The notes below the pieces were generated by a model that worked only from the letters and a program-made list of their open reading frames with translations, was not told the DNA's origin and ran no database searches. Below, piece by piece: positions 34,725 through 39,326 of a stretch of 64,000 nucleotides of DNA (the stretch's first letter is position 1; every line of letters begins with the position of its first letter). Made by a program: the position numbers and the translations under genes. The DNA is taken from the sequence record MK562505. One strand, given 5' to 3'. Source of the stretch: Shigella phage Silverhawkium.

Positions 34725-34800
34725 TGGAGTATCGGAAGGGACTCGAACCCTCATAAACCTGTTTTGCAGACAGGAACATATCCATTTCTGTCACCGATAC
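34725..34800 (-). tRNA. tRNA-Cys (anticodon GCA)
   Basis: Manual fold: 7-bp acceptor GTATCGG/CCGATAC, anticodon loop CTGCAAA, T-loop TTCGAGT, CCA encoded. Confidence 0.65.
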
Positions 34801-34806
34801 ATAATT

Positions 34807-34899
34807 TGGAGGAAGATACCAGACTTGAACTGGTACGCCGATTTCTCGGTTACTGGCAGTTTAGCAAACTGCTCCCTTACCTGTTAGGGTTAATCTTCC
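34807..34899 (-). tRNA. tRNA-Ser (anticodon GCT), long variable arm
   Basis: Acceptor GGAAGAT/ATCTTCC, anticodon loop TTGCTAA, long variable arm, T-loop TTCAAGT. Confidence 0.65.
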
Positions 34900-34901
34900 A
34901 G

Positions 34902-35699
34902 TTATTTGTTAAGTGCATCTTTCATTTCTGGTGTAGAGATAGAGTCAATAACACCAGTCTTACAAGCATCATCAAACCAGTCTGGTAAGACATTTGCAAG
35001 AAAACCGTTAATGTTTGTCTTAAGATACTCAGCCATCAATGCTACTTCATCAGCAATCATCTGTGTGACTTCTGAAGCGTATGCAGTAATCTTTGACATA
35101 CCTTCATTAATCGCTGTAACAGCTTGTGAGGCTAAATCTTCGATTGTATCAAGCCCTTGGTCAATTGCATCTTGTAAGTCGCTTAGAACGCCGTTTACAG
35201 CGTCTATGGAGGTGTTTATAATCTCCATAGCTTTGTTACCATACTCAGTAGCAACTCCCATAATCCCACTGAATGGCGTACAACCAACTTGTTCACCTGC
35301 TGCTCCCATTACATTAGAGTAGCCTTTTGCCACCTGCATTCGTTGAGAGAACTCATCTACAGATTTCTGACCATACTCAGTCAGTGTAGTGGTTGTTGAA
35401 GTTGTACTGCCAAGACTTGTTGTGAAGCTACTTAAGAGTGCTGCTGTTAATCCAGCCGCAATAAGCTTATCTTGCACAGTCGGGTCTGTTACGGAACTAA
35501 TAGAGTTTACTAATGACTGAGAGGCAGCAATTGTACCACCAAGGACTGCTGCACCAGTAATAAGAGGGTTTGAGAAACCATTACCAGTTTTAAGGAGATT
35601 AAAAATCTCTTTACTTTGTTCTGTCATCTCTTTCATTATGCACCTATAAAGTTGGTAGCCCATCGGGATTTGAACCCTGTTCTCATGTTTTTCAGACAA
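34902..35699 (-). CDS. hypothetical Ala/Ser/Thr-rich protein embedded in tRNA island (265 aa)
   Basis: Long ORF between tRNA genes; low-complexity A/S/T-rich N-terminal half. Confidence 0.4.
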   Translation of the reverse strand: MSEKHENRVQIPMGYQLYRCIMKEMTEQSKEIFNLLKTGNGFSNPLITGAAVLGGTIAASQSLVNSISSVTDPTVQDKLIAAGLTAALLSSFTTSLGSTTSTTTTLTEYGQKSVDEFSQRMQVAKGYSNVMGAAGEQVGCTPFSGIMGVATEYGNKAMEIINTSIDAVNGVLSDLQDAIDQGLDTIEDLASQAVTAINEGMSKITAYASEVTQMIADEVALMAEYLKTNINGFLANVLPDWFDDACKTGVIDSISTPEMKDALNK

Positions 35700-35729
35700 G
35701 CGCTTTAACCATATAAGCTAATTGAGCTA
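35655..35729 (-). tRNA. probable tRNA, isotype uncertain (possibly Phe, anticodon GAA)
   Basis: T-loop TTCAAAT with 3-bp GGG/CCC stem, D-loop ATATGGTTA, loop CTGAAAA; acceptor register ambiguous. Confidence 0.35.
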
Positions 35730-35735
35730 TTAAAT

Positions 35736-35812
35736 TGGGGTGACCTACGGGAATCGAACCCGTATAGACCATGTTCACAGCATGGGTCATTATCCATTTA
35801 TGATAAGGCCAC
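35736..35812 (-). tRNA. tRNA-His (anticodon GTG)
   Basis: Acceptor GTGGCCT/AGGTCAC, anticodon loop CTGTGAA, T-arm ACGGG-TTCGATT-CCCGT, CCA encoded. Confidence 0.7.
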
Positions 35813-35843
35813 ATTTAAGGACTCTCGTAAGAACCCTTAGAAG

Positions 35844-35919
35844 TGGCAGCAGTATAAGGATTTGAACCTTAATCTTTCAGCTTCAGAGGCTGGAGCATTG
35901 CCAGTTATGCTATACTGCT
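35844..35919 (-). tRNA. tRNA-Gln (anticodon CTG)
   Basis: Acceptor AGCAGTA/TACTGCT, D-arm GCAT/ATGC, anticodon loop CTCTGAA. Confidence 0.65.
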
Positions 35920-35925
35920 AATATT

Positions 35926-36004
35926 TGGTACTCCATATCGGATTCGAACCGATACATAACACAGATTTTAAATCTGGCCTCTCTGCCAATTGGAGTAATG
36001 GAGC
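35926..36004 (-). tRNA. tRNA with Leu-type anticodon TAA but short variable arm
   Basis: Acceptor pairs, A14/G18G19/A21 D-loop, anticodon stem CAGA/TCTG with loop TTTAAAA, T-arm ATCGG-TTCGAAT-CCGAT, A73. Confidence 0.5.
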
Positions 36005-36006
36005 CT

Positions 36007-36082
36007 TGGCGGGGGATGATGGAATTGAACCATCTTCTTCGATTTCAAAGACCGAGGTTTTAACCTTGTAAACTAATCCCCT
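36007..36082 (-). tRNA. tRNA-Gln (anticodon TTG)
   Basis: D-arm GTTT/AAAC, anticodon loop CTTTGAA, T-arm GATGG-TTCAATT-CCATC; A1-C72 mismatch. Confidence 0.65.
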
Positions 36083-36090
36083 ATTAAATT

Positions 36091-36167
36091 TGGTGCAGAA
36101 TAGAGGATTCGAACCCCTAACAAACAACTTCGTAGATTGCTGTTCTATCCATTTGAACTAATTCTGC
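36091..36167 (-). tRNA. tRNA-Arg (anticodon ACG)
   Basis: Acceptor GCAGAAT/ATTCTGC perfect, D-arm GTTC/GAAC, anticodon loop CTACGAA. Confidence 0.7.
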
Positions 36168-36168
36168 A

Positions 36169-36411
36169 TTATCCGATAAGGACACCATAAAGTTTTAACT
36201 CTTCATTAGTGTCTCTTCTGCTTAAGACTGACTCTCTAAAATCTTTAGCAATATTCTTTCGAGATTCCTGTCTAGCTCTCTTCTTATCTCTTCTGAGAAA
36301 GCGTTTACGATGGTCTGTACGCCATTTGTAATAATCTTCTTCACCATCATGTGCTGCACAGCAGCCACAACTTGCAATTTCAACTTTACCGTGTCTACCA
36401 TAAGGTTTCAT
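36169..36411 (-). CDS. small basic Cys-cluster protein (80 aa) embedded in tRNA island
   Basis: ORF with SCGCCAAHD cysteine cluster and Arg/Lys-rich C-terminus; abuts tRNA-Arg. Confidence 0.35.
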   Translation of the reverse strand: MKPYGRHGKVEIASCGCCAAHDGEEDYYKWRTDHRKRFLRRDKKRARQESRKNIAKDFRESVLSRRDTNEELKLYGVLIG

Positions 36412-36427
36412 AGGAATCTCCTAAAAT

Positions 36428-36505
36428 TGGTACTCCAAGACGGATTCGAACCGTCACTAATACAAGGTTTGAGCTTGCATCCTCTACCAATTGGGATACT
36501 GGAGC
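36428..36505 (-). tRNA. tRNA with Leu-type anticodon CAA but short variable arm
   Basis: Anticodon stem GCAAG/CTTGT with loop CTCAAAC, T-arm GACGG-TTCGAAT-CCGTC, A73, CCA encoded. Confidence 0.5.
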
Positions 36506-36506
36506 A

Positions 36507-36581
36507 TGGTACTCGCTGAAGAACTTGAATCTTCTTCACCAACTTGTAAGGATGGGGTTTTACCGTATAAACTAAGCGAGC
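36507..36581 (-). tRNA. tRNA-Val (anticodon TAC)
   Basis: Acceptor GCTCGCT/AGCGAGT, D-arm GTTT/AAAC, loop CTTACAA, T-arm GAAGA-TTCAAGT-TCTTC. Confidence 0.6.
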
Positions 36582-36676
36582 TTTGAAGAGGTCTGAAGCT
36601 GTGCCGCTAACTCAACTCCGTGGAATTTGTTACGGTCTTCAGTTGACTCAAGCGGTCTTTCACTTGACCTCAAAAT

Positions 36677-36752
36677 TGGTGCTCCCACAAGGATTCGAAC
36701 CCTGATAAGTTGCTTACAAGGCAACCGTAATAGCCAATTATACGATAAGAGC
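36677..36752 (-). tRNA. tRNA-Thr (anticodon TGT)
   Basis: Anticodon arm GTTGC-CTTGTAA-GCAAC perfect; T-loop TTCGAAT. Confidence 0.7.
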
Positions 36753-36758
36753 ATTATT

Positions 36759-36833
36759 TGGAGCATCCAGAGGGAATCGAACCCTCAACCTCAGTTTGGA
36801 AGACTGTAATTTTCCCGTTTAAACTATGGATGC
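36759..36833 (-). tRNA. tRNA-Gly (anticodon TCC)
   Basis: Acceptor GCATCCA/TGGATGC perfect, loop CTTCCAA, T-arm GAGGG-TTCGATT-CCCTC. Confidence 0.7.
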
Positions 36834-36839
36834 ACTAAT

Positions 36840-36914
36840 TGGTGGAGTCACCGAGAATTGAACTCGGTTCCCAAGTTTGCAAAACTCGAATTTTAACCAT
36901 ATAAACTATGACCC
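36840..36914 (-). tRNA. tRNA-Ala (anticodon TGC)
   Basis: G3-U70 wobble pair in acceptor stem (Ala identity element), loop TTTGCAA, T-arm CCGAG-TTCAATT-CTCGG. Confidence 0.7.
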
Positions 36915-36921
36915 CATTGTT

Positions 36922-36997
36922 TGGTACAGGTGGAGGGAATTGAACCCATCGTCTTACTGATTAAGAGTCAGCCGCATAACCATTTTGCTACACCTGC
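36922..36997 (-). tRNA. tRNA-Lys (anticodon CTT)
   Basis: Acceptor GCAGGTG/CACCTGT, loop CTCTTAA; T-stem only 3 GC pairs. Confidence 0.55.
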
Positions 36998-37004
36998 ATT
37001 AATT

Positions 37005-37081
37005 TGGTACACCTAGAGAGATTCGAACTCACACTGAGCAGATTCTAAGTCTGCTGCCTCTTCCAATTGGGCTATAGGTGC
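37005..37081 (-). tRNA. tRNA with Leu-type anticodon TAG but short variable arm
   Basis: Anticodon arm GCAGA-CTTAGAA-TCTGC perfect, 5-nt variable loop, T-loop TTCGAAT, A73. Confidence 0.5.
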
Positions 37082-37331
37082 ATTAAATCTTTGTAGAGAA
37101 CTGCTAAGACGCCAAAGCAACAATGGTATCAAATGCCTTAACAATTCTCTAAAAAGACCTATTGGCCTTTGCATAGTCTTGCTTAATCCGGTGACTAGAA
37201 CCTTTGGAGAGCTTGATACTATCTCTTCTCCGTGACACCTACTAGGTGCTTTCTCAACATCGTGTACGCCAATACACGGAGGGAAACCTAACGCAACATT
37301 CGAACGGAGCGCGGCTTTAAATCTTATTAGG

Positions 37332-37419
37332 CGGTAAGTAAAGGAGTCGAACCCTCACCGTATCTCTACAGTGGCAACTGTTTTCAAGACAGTTTGGCTA
37401 CCATTAGCCGCTACCTACC
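37332..37419 (-). tRNA. tRNA-Ser (anticodon TGA), long variable arm, CCA not encoded
   Basis: Anticodon arm ACTGT-CTTGAAA-ACAGT perfect, about 20-nt variable arm, T-loop TTCGACT. Confidence 0.65.
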
Positions 37420-37432
37420 CCTAATAAGACTT

Positions 37433-37515
37433 TGGCATGGGACGTAGGATTCGAACCCATTTGAAACGGTTTTGGAGGCCGTCGCACATGCCTTAGTGTC
37501 TTAACATCGTCCCAT
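37433..37515 (-). tRNA. probable tRNA-Trp (anticodon CCA) with atypical extra nucleotides 5' of the D-arm
   Basis: Perfect 7-bp acceptor ATGGGAC/GTCCCAT, anticodon loop CTCCAAA, T-loop TTCGAAT; 83 nt. Confidence 0.4.
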
Positions 37516-37680
37516 ACTATATTTCGAAGCTTACCCTGTTATCTCAACACTGTCAAGCTTCTTCTCAGATTATTTACATGTTCTGGAAAACATGAGATAC
37601 AGACCACCTCCTTATGAGATTGACTCTTTCAAGTCAATGCGGAGACCCATAAAGGTCGTCGTAGTAATCTGCTAACTATT

Positions 37681-37756
37681 TGGCACTCCGTATAGGACTC
37701 GAACCTATATATGAACTGTTTAGAAGACAGTTGCCTATCCTTTAGACTAACGGAGC
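37681..37756 (-). tRNA. tRNA-Arg (anticodon TCT)
   Basis: Anticodon arm ACTGT-CTTCTAA-ACAGT perfect; T-arm ATAGG-TTCGAGT-CCTAT perfect. Confidence 0.7.
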
Positions 37757-38003
37757 ATTATCTTTAAAGGCTCTCTTAGAAAACCCTTAAAGATGCCCAC
37801 TTTATTAATCATACCGTGGGCTAGTACGCCAAATTCTTTAACAGGGAGTTGGAATACCCTGCTGGTGTTTAGCCTATTAAGCTACTGCCAGAAAAACATT
37901 ATCGTTTGCATTTATTTTTAAGTTTTTAAAATAGACGCTACGCTAACGAAAACTAAGGTTATCTTAAAGTGGTCACATCTGAATGTCAACAACTTTATGA
38001 AAT

Positions 38004-38078
38004 TGGTTGTAGGTGAGGGTATCGAACCCTCTTCTAACGGTTATCAGCCGTTTGCATTACCATTTATGCTAACCCACA
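38004..38078 (-). tRNA. tRNA-Ile (anticodon GAT)
   Basis: D-arm GCAT/ATGC, anticodon arm AACGG-CTGATAA-CCGTT, T-arm GAGGG-TTCGATA-CCCTC. Confidence 0.7.
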
Positions 38079-38080
38079 AT

Positions 38081-38157
38081 TGGAGGTTCAGGTGGGAATC
38101 GAACCCACATTCATAGGGCTTATGAAACCCTTGCATTACCTTATCTGCGACTGAACC
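38081..38157 (-). tRNA. tRNA-Met (anticodon CAT)
   Basis: Acceptor GGTTCAG/CTGAACC perfect, loop TTCATAA with G-C-rich anticodon stem. Confidence 0.65.
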
Positions 38158-38161
38158 ATAT

Positions 38162-38237
38162 TGGTAGAAGTGGAGGGATTCGAACCCGTCGCCTGTCAGA
38201 TTAAAAGTCTGCCGCATCACCATTCTGCTACACTTCC
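38162..38237 (-). tRNA. tRNA-Lys (anticodon TTT)
   Basis: Loop CTTTTAA, T-loop TTCGAAT with 3-bp GGG/CCC stem as in tRNA-Lys(CTT). Confidence 0.6.
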
Positions 38238-38424
38238 ATTAAATCATCTTTGCAGTAACCTACGCAAACCTTGCTAAAGGGTTTGTAGAGTCATCTCTTA
38301 GTAAGCTAATCTAGAATCATGCTCAAGAGACTCTTCGGCACTCATGGGACGACTGGTTAGCTCCATAAGTCACTGCAAAGGTGATTACCAGACCGTTGTT
38401 ATCTTAAGTGCTTCCATTACACCA

Positions 38425-38525
38425 ACACGCCGTAACGTGTGAAGGAATCGAACCTTCGCCTTTTCTTTACCAGAGAAATAGATTGTTTAACTTGCTGTAA
38501 ACGGTCTTCTGTAAATTGTTGGAAC
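38425..38525 (-). ncRNA. orphan tRNA-like element (T-arm only) of unknown function
   Basis: Perfect T-arm GAAGG-TTCGATT-CCTTC at 38441-38457 but no matching acceptor, D or anticodon arms; overlaps repeated 24-nt motif. Confidence 0.3.
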
Positions 38526-38659
38526 CAGACCAAGTTTTAAATTTTTCAAAATTAAATTGGCTTGAAATTTTAAGTGACTTGCTGTATTTGGTCTTCTGCT
38601 CCTTTAAAGAATACTCGCAAGAACTCTTTAAGGGAGGGGCTAAATAGCCCTCTCAAAAT

Positions 38660-38736
38660 TGGCGGCTACGATGAGACTTGAACTCACATCATCTCCCGTG
38701 ACAGGGGAGTATTTTCTCCAGTTAAACTACATAGCC
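38660..38736 (-). tRNA. tRNA-Asp (anticodon GTC)
   Basis: Anticodon arm CTCCC-CTGTCAC-GGGAG perfect; T-loop TTCAAGT. Confidence 0.7.
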
Positions 38737-38741
38737 TTTAT

Positions 38742-38829
38742 TGGTGTGCCGTGTAGGAGTCGAACCTACCGAGTCTCAATGACAAGGGATTTACAGTCCC
38801 CACCGCTACCATCTACGGGATAACGACAC
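38742..38829 (-). tRNA. tRNA-Tyr (anticodon GTA), long variable arm
   Basis: 3-bp D-stem, loop CTGTAAA, long variable arm, T-arm GTAGG-TTCGACT-CCTAC. Confidence 0.65.
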
Positions 38830-38838
38830 ATTTAAATT

Positions 38839-38915
38839 TGGCGGTTAGTCAGGGATTCGAACCCTGTACCATTCGGTTAACAGCCGACCGCACATGCCTT
38901 ATGTGCTTCCTAACC
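38839..38915 (-). tRNA. tRNA-Asn (anticodon GTT)
   Basis: D-arm GCAC-ATAAGGCAT-GTGC, loop CTGTTAA, T-arm CAGGG-TTCGAAT-CCCTG. Confidence 0.65.
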
Positions 38916-38998
38916 ATGTTAGTATTACCAGACCGTATCTTTTCATTTTTTCCGATAAAAAATTTTAAGTGTTTGCTGTAAACGGCCTTCTGTAAATT

Positions 38999-39074
38999 TG
39001 GAGGCGGGTGTAGGAGTCGAACCTACCGATACCATGCTAATGAGACATGTGAGACGCCCTTTCTCTATACCCGC
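38999..39074 (-). tRNA. tRNA-Met or Ile2 (anticodon CAT), second copy, with 1:72 mismatch
   Basis: Anticodon arm CATGT-CTCATTA-GCATG; T1-C72 mismatch reminiscent of initiator-type acceptor end. Confidence 0.5.
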
Positions 39075-39162
39075 AATTCTTAATGACCAGACCAAATCTT
39101 TTTTGGATTTCTATGCGCGAAATTGAAAAGTTTGTTTGCTGTAATTGGTCTTCTGTCAAAAC

Positions 39163-39240
39163 TGGCATTCCCGAAGGGACTTGAACCCTCAAACCACACC
39201 TTGAAAGGGTGTTGACTTTACCTAATTTGTCTACGGGAAT
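39163..39240 (-). tRNA. tRNA-Glu (anticodon TTC)
   Basis: Acceptor ATTCCCG/CGGGAAT perfect, anticodon arm ACACC-CTTTCAA-GGTGT perfect. Confidence 0.7.
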
Positions 39241-39246
39241 ATAATT

Positions 39247-39326
39247 TGGTCTCCGTTGAAGGATTTGAACCTTCGACCCCTTGCTCCCAAAGCAAGTGCT
39301 GCTAAACCAAACTGAGCTAAACGGAG
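39247..39326 (-). tRNA. tRNA-Pro (anticodon TGG)
   Basis: Acceptor CTCCGTT/AACGGAG perfect, anticodon arm CTTGC-TTTGGGA-GCAAG, T-arm GAAGG-TTCAAAT-CCTTC. Confidence 0.7.

Follow-up and report, generated by a model that had tools for sequence, protein, structure and literature searches.

Can a tRNA that carries a leucine anticodon and lacks the long variable arm serve as a leucine tRNA in an enterobacterial host? This question is raised by three genes in a stretch of 64,000 nucleotides from Shigella phage Silverhawkium (sequence record MK562505; the whole stretch is referred to as the window), which have the anticodons UAA, CAA and UAG and lie within a large island of tRNA genes. In the initial annotation the three tRNAs had been folded by hand, variable loops of 4–7 nt and the discriminator base A73 had been assigned to each, and two possibilities had been left: atypical leucine tRNAs, or something else of a mischarged or suppressor-like kind. 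The analysis described here showed that the three genes are real leucine tRNAs without a long extra arm. To judge from their sequences, they are quite probably functional type I leucine tRNAs of a FelixO1-like phage, which the host's leucyl-tRNA synthetase (LeuRS) would charge and which would decode leucine codons.

Structure of the three tRNAs

Genes were called with ARAGORN and scored against Rfam RF00005 (gathering score 29 bits), and cloverleaves were parsed with three anchors: acceptor stem, position of the anticodon, and T arm. ARAGORN returned the same coordinates and anticodons as those assigned by hand (Table 1). The parse gave variable regions of 7 nt (GUUAUGU) for the UAA tRNA, 6 nt (AUUAGU) for the CAA tRNA and 5 nt (UCAGU) for the UAG tRNA, in agreement with the range proposed earlier, and A73 was likewise recovered in all three. 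No helix is present in any of these variable regions, nor is the stem-loop of at least 10 nt that marks a class II tRNA; the automated gene calls and the parse neither moved an anticodon nor revealed a long arm that had been overlooked. The remainder of the cloverleaf is well formed, with 7/7 acceptor pairs, 4–5/5 anticodon-stem pairs and 4–5/5 T-stem pairs in each tRNA. All three combine a leucine anticodon and a short variable region with a leucine-type body, as in a type I tRNA-Leu, a type defined for S. coelicolor and mitochondria by a variable region of about 5 nt.

The UAA tRNA contains G1·U72, U8–A9, a D arm CUC-C-AAUUGGCAGA-GAG with a 3 bp stem, the anticodon loop UUUAAAA, which is that of host leuZ, and the T arm AUCGG-UUCGAAU-CCGAU. 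The CAA tRNA contains G1·U72 and G7·U66, the D arm UCC-C-AAUUGGUAGA-GGA, the anticodon loop CUCAAAC and the T arm GACGG-UUCGAAU-CCGUC. The UAG tRNA contains G1·U72, the D arm GCC-C-AAUUGGAAGA-GGC, the anticodon loop CUUAGAA (with A37 and not G37) and the T arm GUGAG-UUCGAAU-CUCUC. The G1·U72 wobble common to the three is also found in host leuZ and in about one third of the short-arm viral leucine tRNAs described below. Thermodynamic folding of the single sequences gave a cloverleaf-like structure for the CAA tRNA and a mispaired one for the UAG tRNA; the z-scores were weak (−0.6 to −2.1) and these results were not used as evidence.

Leucine identity

The leucine identity set of E. coli consists of A73, A14, the A15–U48 Levitt pair, G18G19, A20a and tertiary contacts of the D loop with the T loop; neither the anticodon nor the long arm is required, and charging persists in variants without the long arm and the anticodon arm (PMC9976931). 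U8–A14, A15–U48, G18G19 in the leucine D-loop register and A20a are present in all three phage tRNAs, together with a 3 bp D stem and an unpaired 13:22. Their D loop, AAUUGG-N-AGA (A14-A15-U-U-G18-G19-N-A-G-A), has the sequence and spacing of that of E. coli leuW and leuQPV. Each of the three has UUCGAAU as its T loop, which provides U54, U55, C56 and A58; with the GG of the D loop, we infer that the elbow pairs G18–U55, G19–C56 and U54–A58 are formed in all three.

The E. coli leucine tRNAs leuZ (UAA), leuX (CAA), leuW (UAG) and leuQPV (CAG) are 85–87 nt in length and have a stem-loop variable arm of 13–15 nt. A73, U8, A14-A15, the G18G19-N-A-G-A spacing, U48, the 3 bp D stem and the unpaired 13:22 are common to these and to the phage tRNAs, whereas the E. 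coli molecules have G9 and the phage molecules have A9 and 5–7 unpaired variable nucleotides. A signature of five features was defined (A73; A14A15; 13:22 unpaired; U48; GG-N-A-N-A). All five were found in each of the three window tRNAs and the full set in none of the 23 other tRNAs of the island; in a generic sample of viral tRNAs, described below, it was complete in 19/26 short-arm and 33/49 long-arm leucine tRNAs and in 0 of about 560 tRNAs for other amino acids.

Isotype scoring, which had been put forward as a check in the initial annotation, is available for the orthologues in Shigella phage Sf14, which has a syntenic annotated tRNA island. In the published tRNAscan-SE analysis leucine scores highest for the CAA tRNA (49.1, with the runner-up at 36.1) and for the UAA tRNA (60.2, with Lys second at 54.2), and all three leucine tRNAs are flagged as 'Consistent'; the paper does not mention the variable region. 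The Sf14 UAA gene is identical to that in the window and the Sf14 UAG gene differs at a single D-loop base. The Sf14 CAA gene differs at 4 nt, with a compensatory replacement of C2–G71 by U2–A71 and a change of U72 to C72 which turns G1·U72 into G1–C72. More widely, the UAA gene is 95–100% identical across about 250 phage genomes, where it is annotated as tRNA-Leu, and the UAG gene gives ungapped matches of 74–83% to annotated tRNA-Leu genes of Mycobacterium, Streptomyces, Vibrio, Cronobacter and other phages.

Occurrence in phages and viral contigs

Two scans of IMG/VR were performed. The first used a pattern that called for a leucine-type D loop and for a leucine anticodon with the T loop close by, and gave matches in at least 120 contigs; among the matches listed, at least 160 short-arm leucine tRNAs (148 unique) were confirmed by ARAGORN. 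A73 was present in 151/160 of these (94%) and U48 in 93%, neither position being set by the pattern. The second scan, which served as a denominator sample, had a generic T loop together with CCA as its sole anchor. In this generic sample 26–27 leucine tRNAs were short-armed and 48–49 long-armed, so that about one third (26/75) lack the arm; after removal of the tRNAs that carry the anchor motif the counts were 19 and 41 (19/60). All 47 serine tRNAs and all 17 tyrosine tRNAs of the sample were long-armed. The short-arm leucine tRNAs found in this way have A73 in 26/26 and U48 in 25/26 cases, although the search forced neither. The same sample contained six ARAGORN tRNA-Pyl (CUA anticodon) and one 'tRNA-Stop', which are candidate suppressor tRNAs of uncultured phages.

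In 174 unique short-arm viral leucine tRNAs each stem position is paired in 92–100% of the molecules, with 4–6 types of base pair at most positions; column shuffles of the same set gave 40–73% pairing, and 95% at the near-invariant G53–C61. Position 13:22 is paired in 1% of these tRNAs, compared with 6% of long-arm leucine tRNAs. The cross-phage conservation of the three window genes, the compensatory change at 2:71 and the stem pairing in the viral short-arm set point to selection on the three genes.

Short-arm leucine tRNAs of phages are mostly located in large tRNA arrays. The Bxz1-like mycobacteriophage ArcherS7 has three of 74–76 nt, and a single one, 75 nt in length, is carried by Streptomyces phage JXY1. 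The enterobacterial Cronobacter phage CR8 has two, which are 77–78 nt in length according to ARAGORN and are annotated as 74–75 nt; they are adjoined by a tyrosine tRNA of 85 nt and serine tRNAs of 84–92 nt. In the island of the window the serine tRNAs (93 and 90 nt) and the tyrosine tRNA likewise retain long variable arms. Phage T5 was considered as an experimental proxy and was rejected, as its single tRNA-Leu(UAG) is a conventional class II molecule of 85 nt. In the T5 region 20000–60000 ARAGORN also called a short 'tRNA-Ser' beside three annotated long ones, which is probably an annotated tRNA-like stable RNA or a miscall. No earlier description of short-arm tRNA-Leu in phages was found in open-access papers and bioRxiv, and its prevalence in phages, its restriction to leucine and its occurrence in enterobacterial phages appear to have been previously undiscussed.

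Proposed charging and decoding

The proposed mechanism starts from the elements listed above. The host LeuRS would charge the three phage tRNAs by way of A73 and the elbow and core architecture; LeuRS reads neither the anticodon nor the arm. Since the elements used by E. coli LeuRS are kept and the arm is dispensable, charging by the host enzyme is the expected outcome. E. coli LeuRS has been found to charge arm-less tRNA-Leu provided that A73 and the D/T-loop contacts are intact (Larkin 2002 and Asahara 1998, as summarized in PMC9976931); those variants were laboratory constructs, while the phage tRNAs are products of natural genes that retain the same required set.

The restriction of arm loss to leucine is in keeping with the way in which the three synthetases for class II tRNAs recognize their substrates. 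Bacterial TyrRS uses the long arm for recognition. The same is true of SerRS, unlike LeuRS (PMC9976931). Because bacterial SerRS and TyrRS recognize the arm, only leucine tRNAs can lose it, and because these two enzymes need it, serine and tyrosine tRNAs have kept theirs, both beside the leucine genes of the window and in phages at large.

In decoding, the UAA tRNA would read UUA and UUG, the CAA tRNA would read UUG, and the UAG tRNA would read CUA and other CUN codons, so that in principle the set supplies an AT-rich phage with tRNAs for both leucine codon boxes. The G+C content of the phage is 39%, and the leucine codons of the window are TTA (25%), CTT (27%), TTG (17%), CTG (15%), CTA (11%) and CTC (5%). 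Leucine codon use in E. coli is strongly biased towards CUG. Given the spread of leucine codons in the phage, tRNAs that read UUR and CUN match its need.

Several observations weigh against charging and efficient decoding by this route. The one bacterial type I tRNA-Leu that has been tried with E. coli LeuRS, the tRNA-Leu(CAA) of Streptomyces coelicolor, was not charged, and the same paper says of this enzyme that it 'only charges type II tRNALeu' (PMC6614811). The leucine-specific domain of E. coli LeuRS prefers tRNAs with a larger variable-arm loop, and charging of the phage tRNAs may therefore be less efficient. A C·U mismatch occupies the closing pair of the anticodon stem in the UAA tRNA, and a single U·U mismatch lies within the T stem of the UAG tRNA. 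The anticodon loops of the other two tRNAs also depart from those of the host. The CAA tRNA has C38 (loop CUCAAAC, compared with UUCAAAA in the host), which breaks the A36-A37-A38 motif; this motif is required for i6A37 and, downstream, for Cm34 formation by TrmL. The UAG tRNA has A37 (loop CUUAGAA, compared with UUUAGGU in the host) and cannot receive m1G37 from TrmD. In view of C38 and A37, two host anticodon-loop modifications, i6A37 with Cm34 in the CAA tRNA and m1G37 in the UAG tRNA, are probably missing.

The S. coelicolor tRNA has C48 and its cognate enzyme ignores A73 (which is not an identity element for ScoLeuRS; PMC6614811), whereas the phage tRNAs keep both of these E. coli determinants. 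Given C48 and the different identity rules, the negative result may not be transferable to the phage tRNAs.

Alternative explanations

The best-surviving alternative concerns the reason for the loss of the arm and is compatible with leucine tRNAs that are charged by the host LeuRS and decode leucine codons. Here the loss would be adaptive: nuclease-resistant leucine tRNAs would sustain translation of the phage while the class II tRNA-Leu of the host is cut within or by way of its arm, either by a host defence nuclease or during phage-induced host shut-off. Arm loss in phages would then be a widespread counter-measure against a predicted defence or phage-triggered activity that destroys class II tRNA-Leu, which by analogy is conceivable and on balance unlikely. 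There is a precedent for defence directed at a variable arm, namely Retron-Eco7/Septu, which acts on the arm of tRNA-Tyr. The phage tRNA-Tyr that evades this system is a phage-encoded tRNA of class II type with a variable region unlike that of the host (PMC11555353, PMC13096335); in this tRNA the arm is altered but kept and nuclease resistance has been demonstrated, while in the phage leucine tRNAs the arm is absent. In humans, type II tRNAs, tRNA-Leu(UAA) among them, are the preferred cleavage substrates of SLFN11, SLFN12 and SLFN14, and the frequency of the short-arm form in phages (about one third) and its position in large arrays would also fit such a role. On the other hand, no bacterial nuclease aimed at the variable arm of tRNA-Leu was found in the literature searched, and many Actinomycetota encode tRNAs of this short design in ordinary chromosomal genes (see below), so that no arms race is required to account for it. 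The Sf14 study deemed nuclease escape unlikely in this phage group, an assessment in which only anticodon loops were examined. Bacterial Schlafens were considered as class II-specific tRNases and were rejected, because the two characterized systems cleave broadly, at anticodon arms or T loops.

It is very improbable that the three tRNAs are poorly charged or not charged by LeuRS and act as decoys or sources of tRNA fragments, or that they are mischarged by another synthetase. The failure of E. coli LeuRS on the Streptomyces tRNA (PMC6614811) would be explained in this way, and the Lys model, second for the Sf14 UAA tRNA, scores close to Leu. The phage tRNAs are also predicted to be less stable than those of the host in the Sf14 analysis, and the fold z-scores obtained here are modest. 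Against this, the full leucine signature is confined to tRNAs with leucine anticodons. Particular anticodon bases are required by LysRS, GlnRS, PheRS and most other synthetases, and these bases are absent from the three tRNAs; alanine is excluded by the absence of G3·U70 and serine by the absence of a long arm. Moreover, hundreds of unrelated phages keep the leucine anticodon linked to the leucine body, and it is difficult to account for this unless the tRNAs decode leucine.

That the tRNAs are nonsense suppressors, as the spellings TAA and TAG superficially suggest, can practically be dismissed, since by base-pairing rules 5'-UAA-3', CAA and 5'-UAG-3' are complementary to the sense codons UUA, UUG and CUA and suppressors of the corresponding stop codons would need UUA or CUA anticodons. 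Of the two possibilities left by the initial annotation, atypical leucine tRNAs are therefore upheld by the leucine signature and the isotype scores, and the mischarged or suppressor-like kind finds no support in the sense anticodons and the leucine body.

Cellular relatives and origin

The same short-arm leucine pattern was scanned across GTDB species genomes. Among the matches listed, confirmed short-arm leucine tRNAs occur at 99 or more loci, of which 70 of those listed are single genes within 8 kb; according to the record titles of these matches the single-gene loci belong mostly to Actinomycetota (Nocardia, Rhodococcus, Mycobacterium, Gordonia, Corynebacterium, Bifidobacterium and Arthrobacter). 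The chromosomal genes of Actinomycetota in this list are single-copy, mostly with UAA, followed by CAA and UAG, and have a nearly invariant D arm, UA-GCCCAAUUGGCAGAGGC-A; they take the bacterial record well past the one published example, in Streptomyces. At 19 of the listed cellular loci the short-arm leucine tRNAs lie inside dense arrays with 5–34 tRNA genes within 8 kb, which may be prophages or known bacterial tRNA gene arrays. The array loci were found in cyanobacteria, Acidobacteriota, Polyangia, Planctomycetota and others.

A type I leucine tRNA is a known kind of molecule, represented in mitochondria, in Streptomyces and, evidently, in many Actinomycetota and phages. The bacterial short-arm example that has been described is the type I tRNA-Leu(CAA) of S. 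coelicolor, in which U8–A14 matters for identity (PMC6614811, Nucleic Acids Res 2019). It is a cellular gene with a 5 nt variable region, ACAGC, which may be compared with UCAGU of the phage UAG tRNA, whereas the phage tRNAs would work in an enterobacterial host. Animal mitochondrial tRNA-Leu also has a short variable region and an identity that rests on A73 and A14 (PMC9976931); it differs from the phage tRNAs in being organellar, with a relaxed core and a dedicated mitochondrial LeuRS. In the searchable literature the term 'type I tRNALeu' was found only in PMC6614811, on Streptomyces, and the prevalence of such tRNAs in phages and Actinomycetota appears to be under-appreciated. The premise of the initial annotation, a long arm as the normal state of bacterial tRNA-Leu, thus applies to E. 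coli and fails as a universal statement, as the short-arm tRNAs of S. coelicolor, Actinomycetota and phages show.

A common core is found in the window genes and in those of Actinomycetota, CR8 and ArcherS7. It consists of U8-A9, (G/U/C)(C/U)CC-AAUUGG-N-AGA-G(G/A)N and an NCAGU-like variable region, often with a T stem of GUGAG/CUCUC type; in the actinobacterial chromosomal relatives it takes the form U8-A9, GCCC-AAUUGGCAGA-GGC and NCAGU. Core identity between the three window tRNAs and the actinobacterial set had medians of 0.73–0.81 and a maximum of 0.92, compared with 0.54–0.68 for E. coli type II leucine tRNAs, values that are indicative only as 10/37 of the compared positions were fixed by the search pattern. 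Other short-arm phage leucine tRNAs have different cores, with U8-G9 and either GAAUUGGYAUAC or AAAUUGGNAAAG, which suggests that the arm was probably lost more than once. The FelixO1-type genes may descend from an old type I lineage that Actinomycetota and their phages also carry, or may have converged on it. The CAA tRNA had no BLAST match in 5,426 E. coli genomes, and nothing therefore points to recent capture from the host.

The tRNA island

The island has 26 tRNA genes for 19 amino acids as called by ARAGORN, all on the minus strand, and the published Sf14 analysis gives the same two figures for that phage. It matches 354 phage records, the best at 93–96% identity, with Shigella phages Sf13–Sf18 and Citrobacter phages Michonne, Moogle and Mordin at the top. 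All of these belong to the genus Mooglevirus in the subfamily Ounavirinae and are myoviruses of FelixO1-like type, as is the window phage. Related phage records already annotate the three tRNA-Leu genes, and hundreds of GenBank records label them as such.

Leucine had been regarded as otherwise the only amino acid without a tRNA in the island. This did not hold, as tRNA-Trp was also not found by ARAGORN or Rfam. TGG accounts for about 1% of the codons in the open reading frames (ORFs) of the window (150/14,611). A short-motif search for tRNA-Trp with a CCA anticodon loop gave 197 matches, too many to be informative. One candidate for tRNA-Trp, at 38433–38496, was rejected because its anticodon loop contains GGU, which is of Thr type, and its D arm is truncated. 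The D arm of this tRNA is reduced to about 6 nt and two of its acceptor pairs are mismatched, while its T arm is perfect; it has the appearance of a degenerate remnant or of a tRNA without a D arm, and the corresponding gap in Sf14 is without annotation. The His, Tyr and second Met tRNAs called by ARAGORN miss the Rfam threshold and are therefore atypical. A small ORF lies between tRNA-Arg(ACG) and tRNA-Leu(CAA) and is preceded by a GGAG ribosome-binding site; its product, which begins MKPYGRHGKVEIASCGCCAAHDGEEDYYKWRTDHRKRF, has a Cys-rich N-terminus and a basic C-terminus. In Sf14 this intergenic space is shorter by about 85 nt, and no gene is annotated in it.

Table 1. Positions in the window of the three leucine tRNA genes and of other features of the island.
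Feature	Position	Strand	Length	Remarks
tRNA-Leu(UAA)	35926–36004	minus	79 nt	length includes encoded CCA; ARAGORN; Rfam RF00005 46.9 bits
tRNA-Leu(CAA)	36428–36505	minus	78 nt	length includes encoded CCA; ARAGORN; Rfam RF00005 45.0 bits
tRNA-Leu(UAG)	37005–37081	minus	77 nt	length includes encoded CCA; ARAGORN; Rfam RF00005 56.1 bits
tRNA island	34725–39326	minus		ARAGORN
tRNA-His	35736–35812	minus		ARAGORN; below Rfam gathering threshold
Small ORF	36169–36411	minus	80 aa	
tRNA with loop CUGGUAA (GGU)	38433–38496	minus	64 nt	Rfam 35.5 bits; missed by ARAGORN
tRNA-Tyr	38742–38829	minus	88 nt	ARAGORN; below Rfam gathering threshold
tRNA-Met (second)	38999–39075	minus		ARAGORN; below Rfam gathering threshold

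Significance

The three genes are identified as leucine tRNAs and are neither suppressors nor mis-annotations, and the oddity of their variable region is not confined to one phage. The loss of the arm in leucine tRNAs only constitutes a natural experiment that matches the rule that LeuRS, unlike SerRS and TyrRS, needs no arm. How an enterobacterial LeuRS acts on a natural type I tRNA-Leu is a concrete and cheap question raised by the phage genes. There is also a possible link between the short-arm tRNA-Leu of phages and the recently found defence nucleases directed at variable arms. If arm loss were indeed a counter-measure against the destruction of class II tRNA-Leu, about one third of phage tRNA-Leu genes would be anti-defence devices, and enterobacterial LeuRS would charge a natural type I tRNA-Leu, in conflict with its published description as charging only type II.

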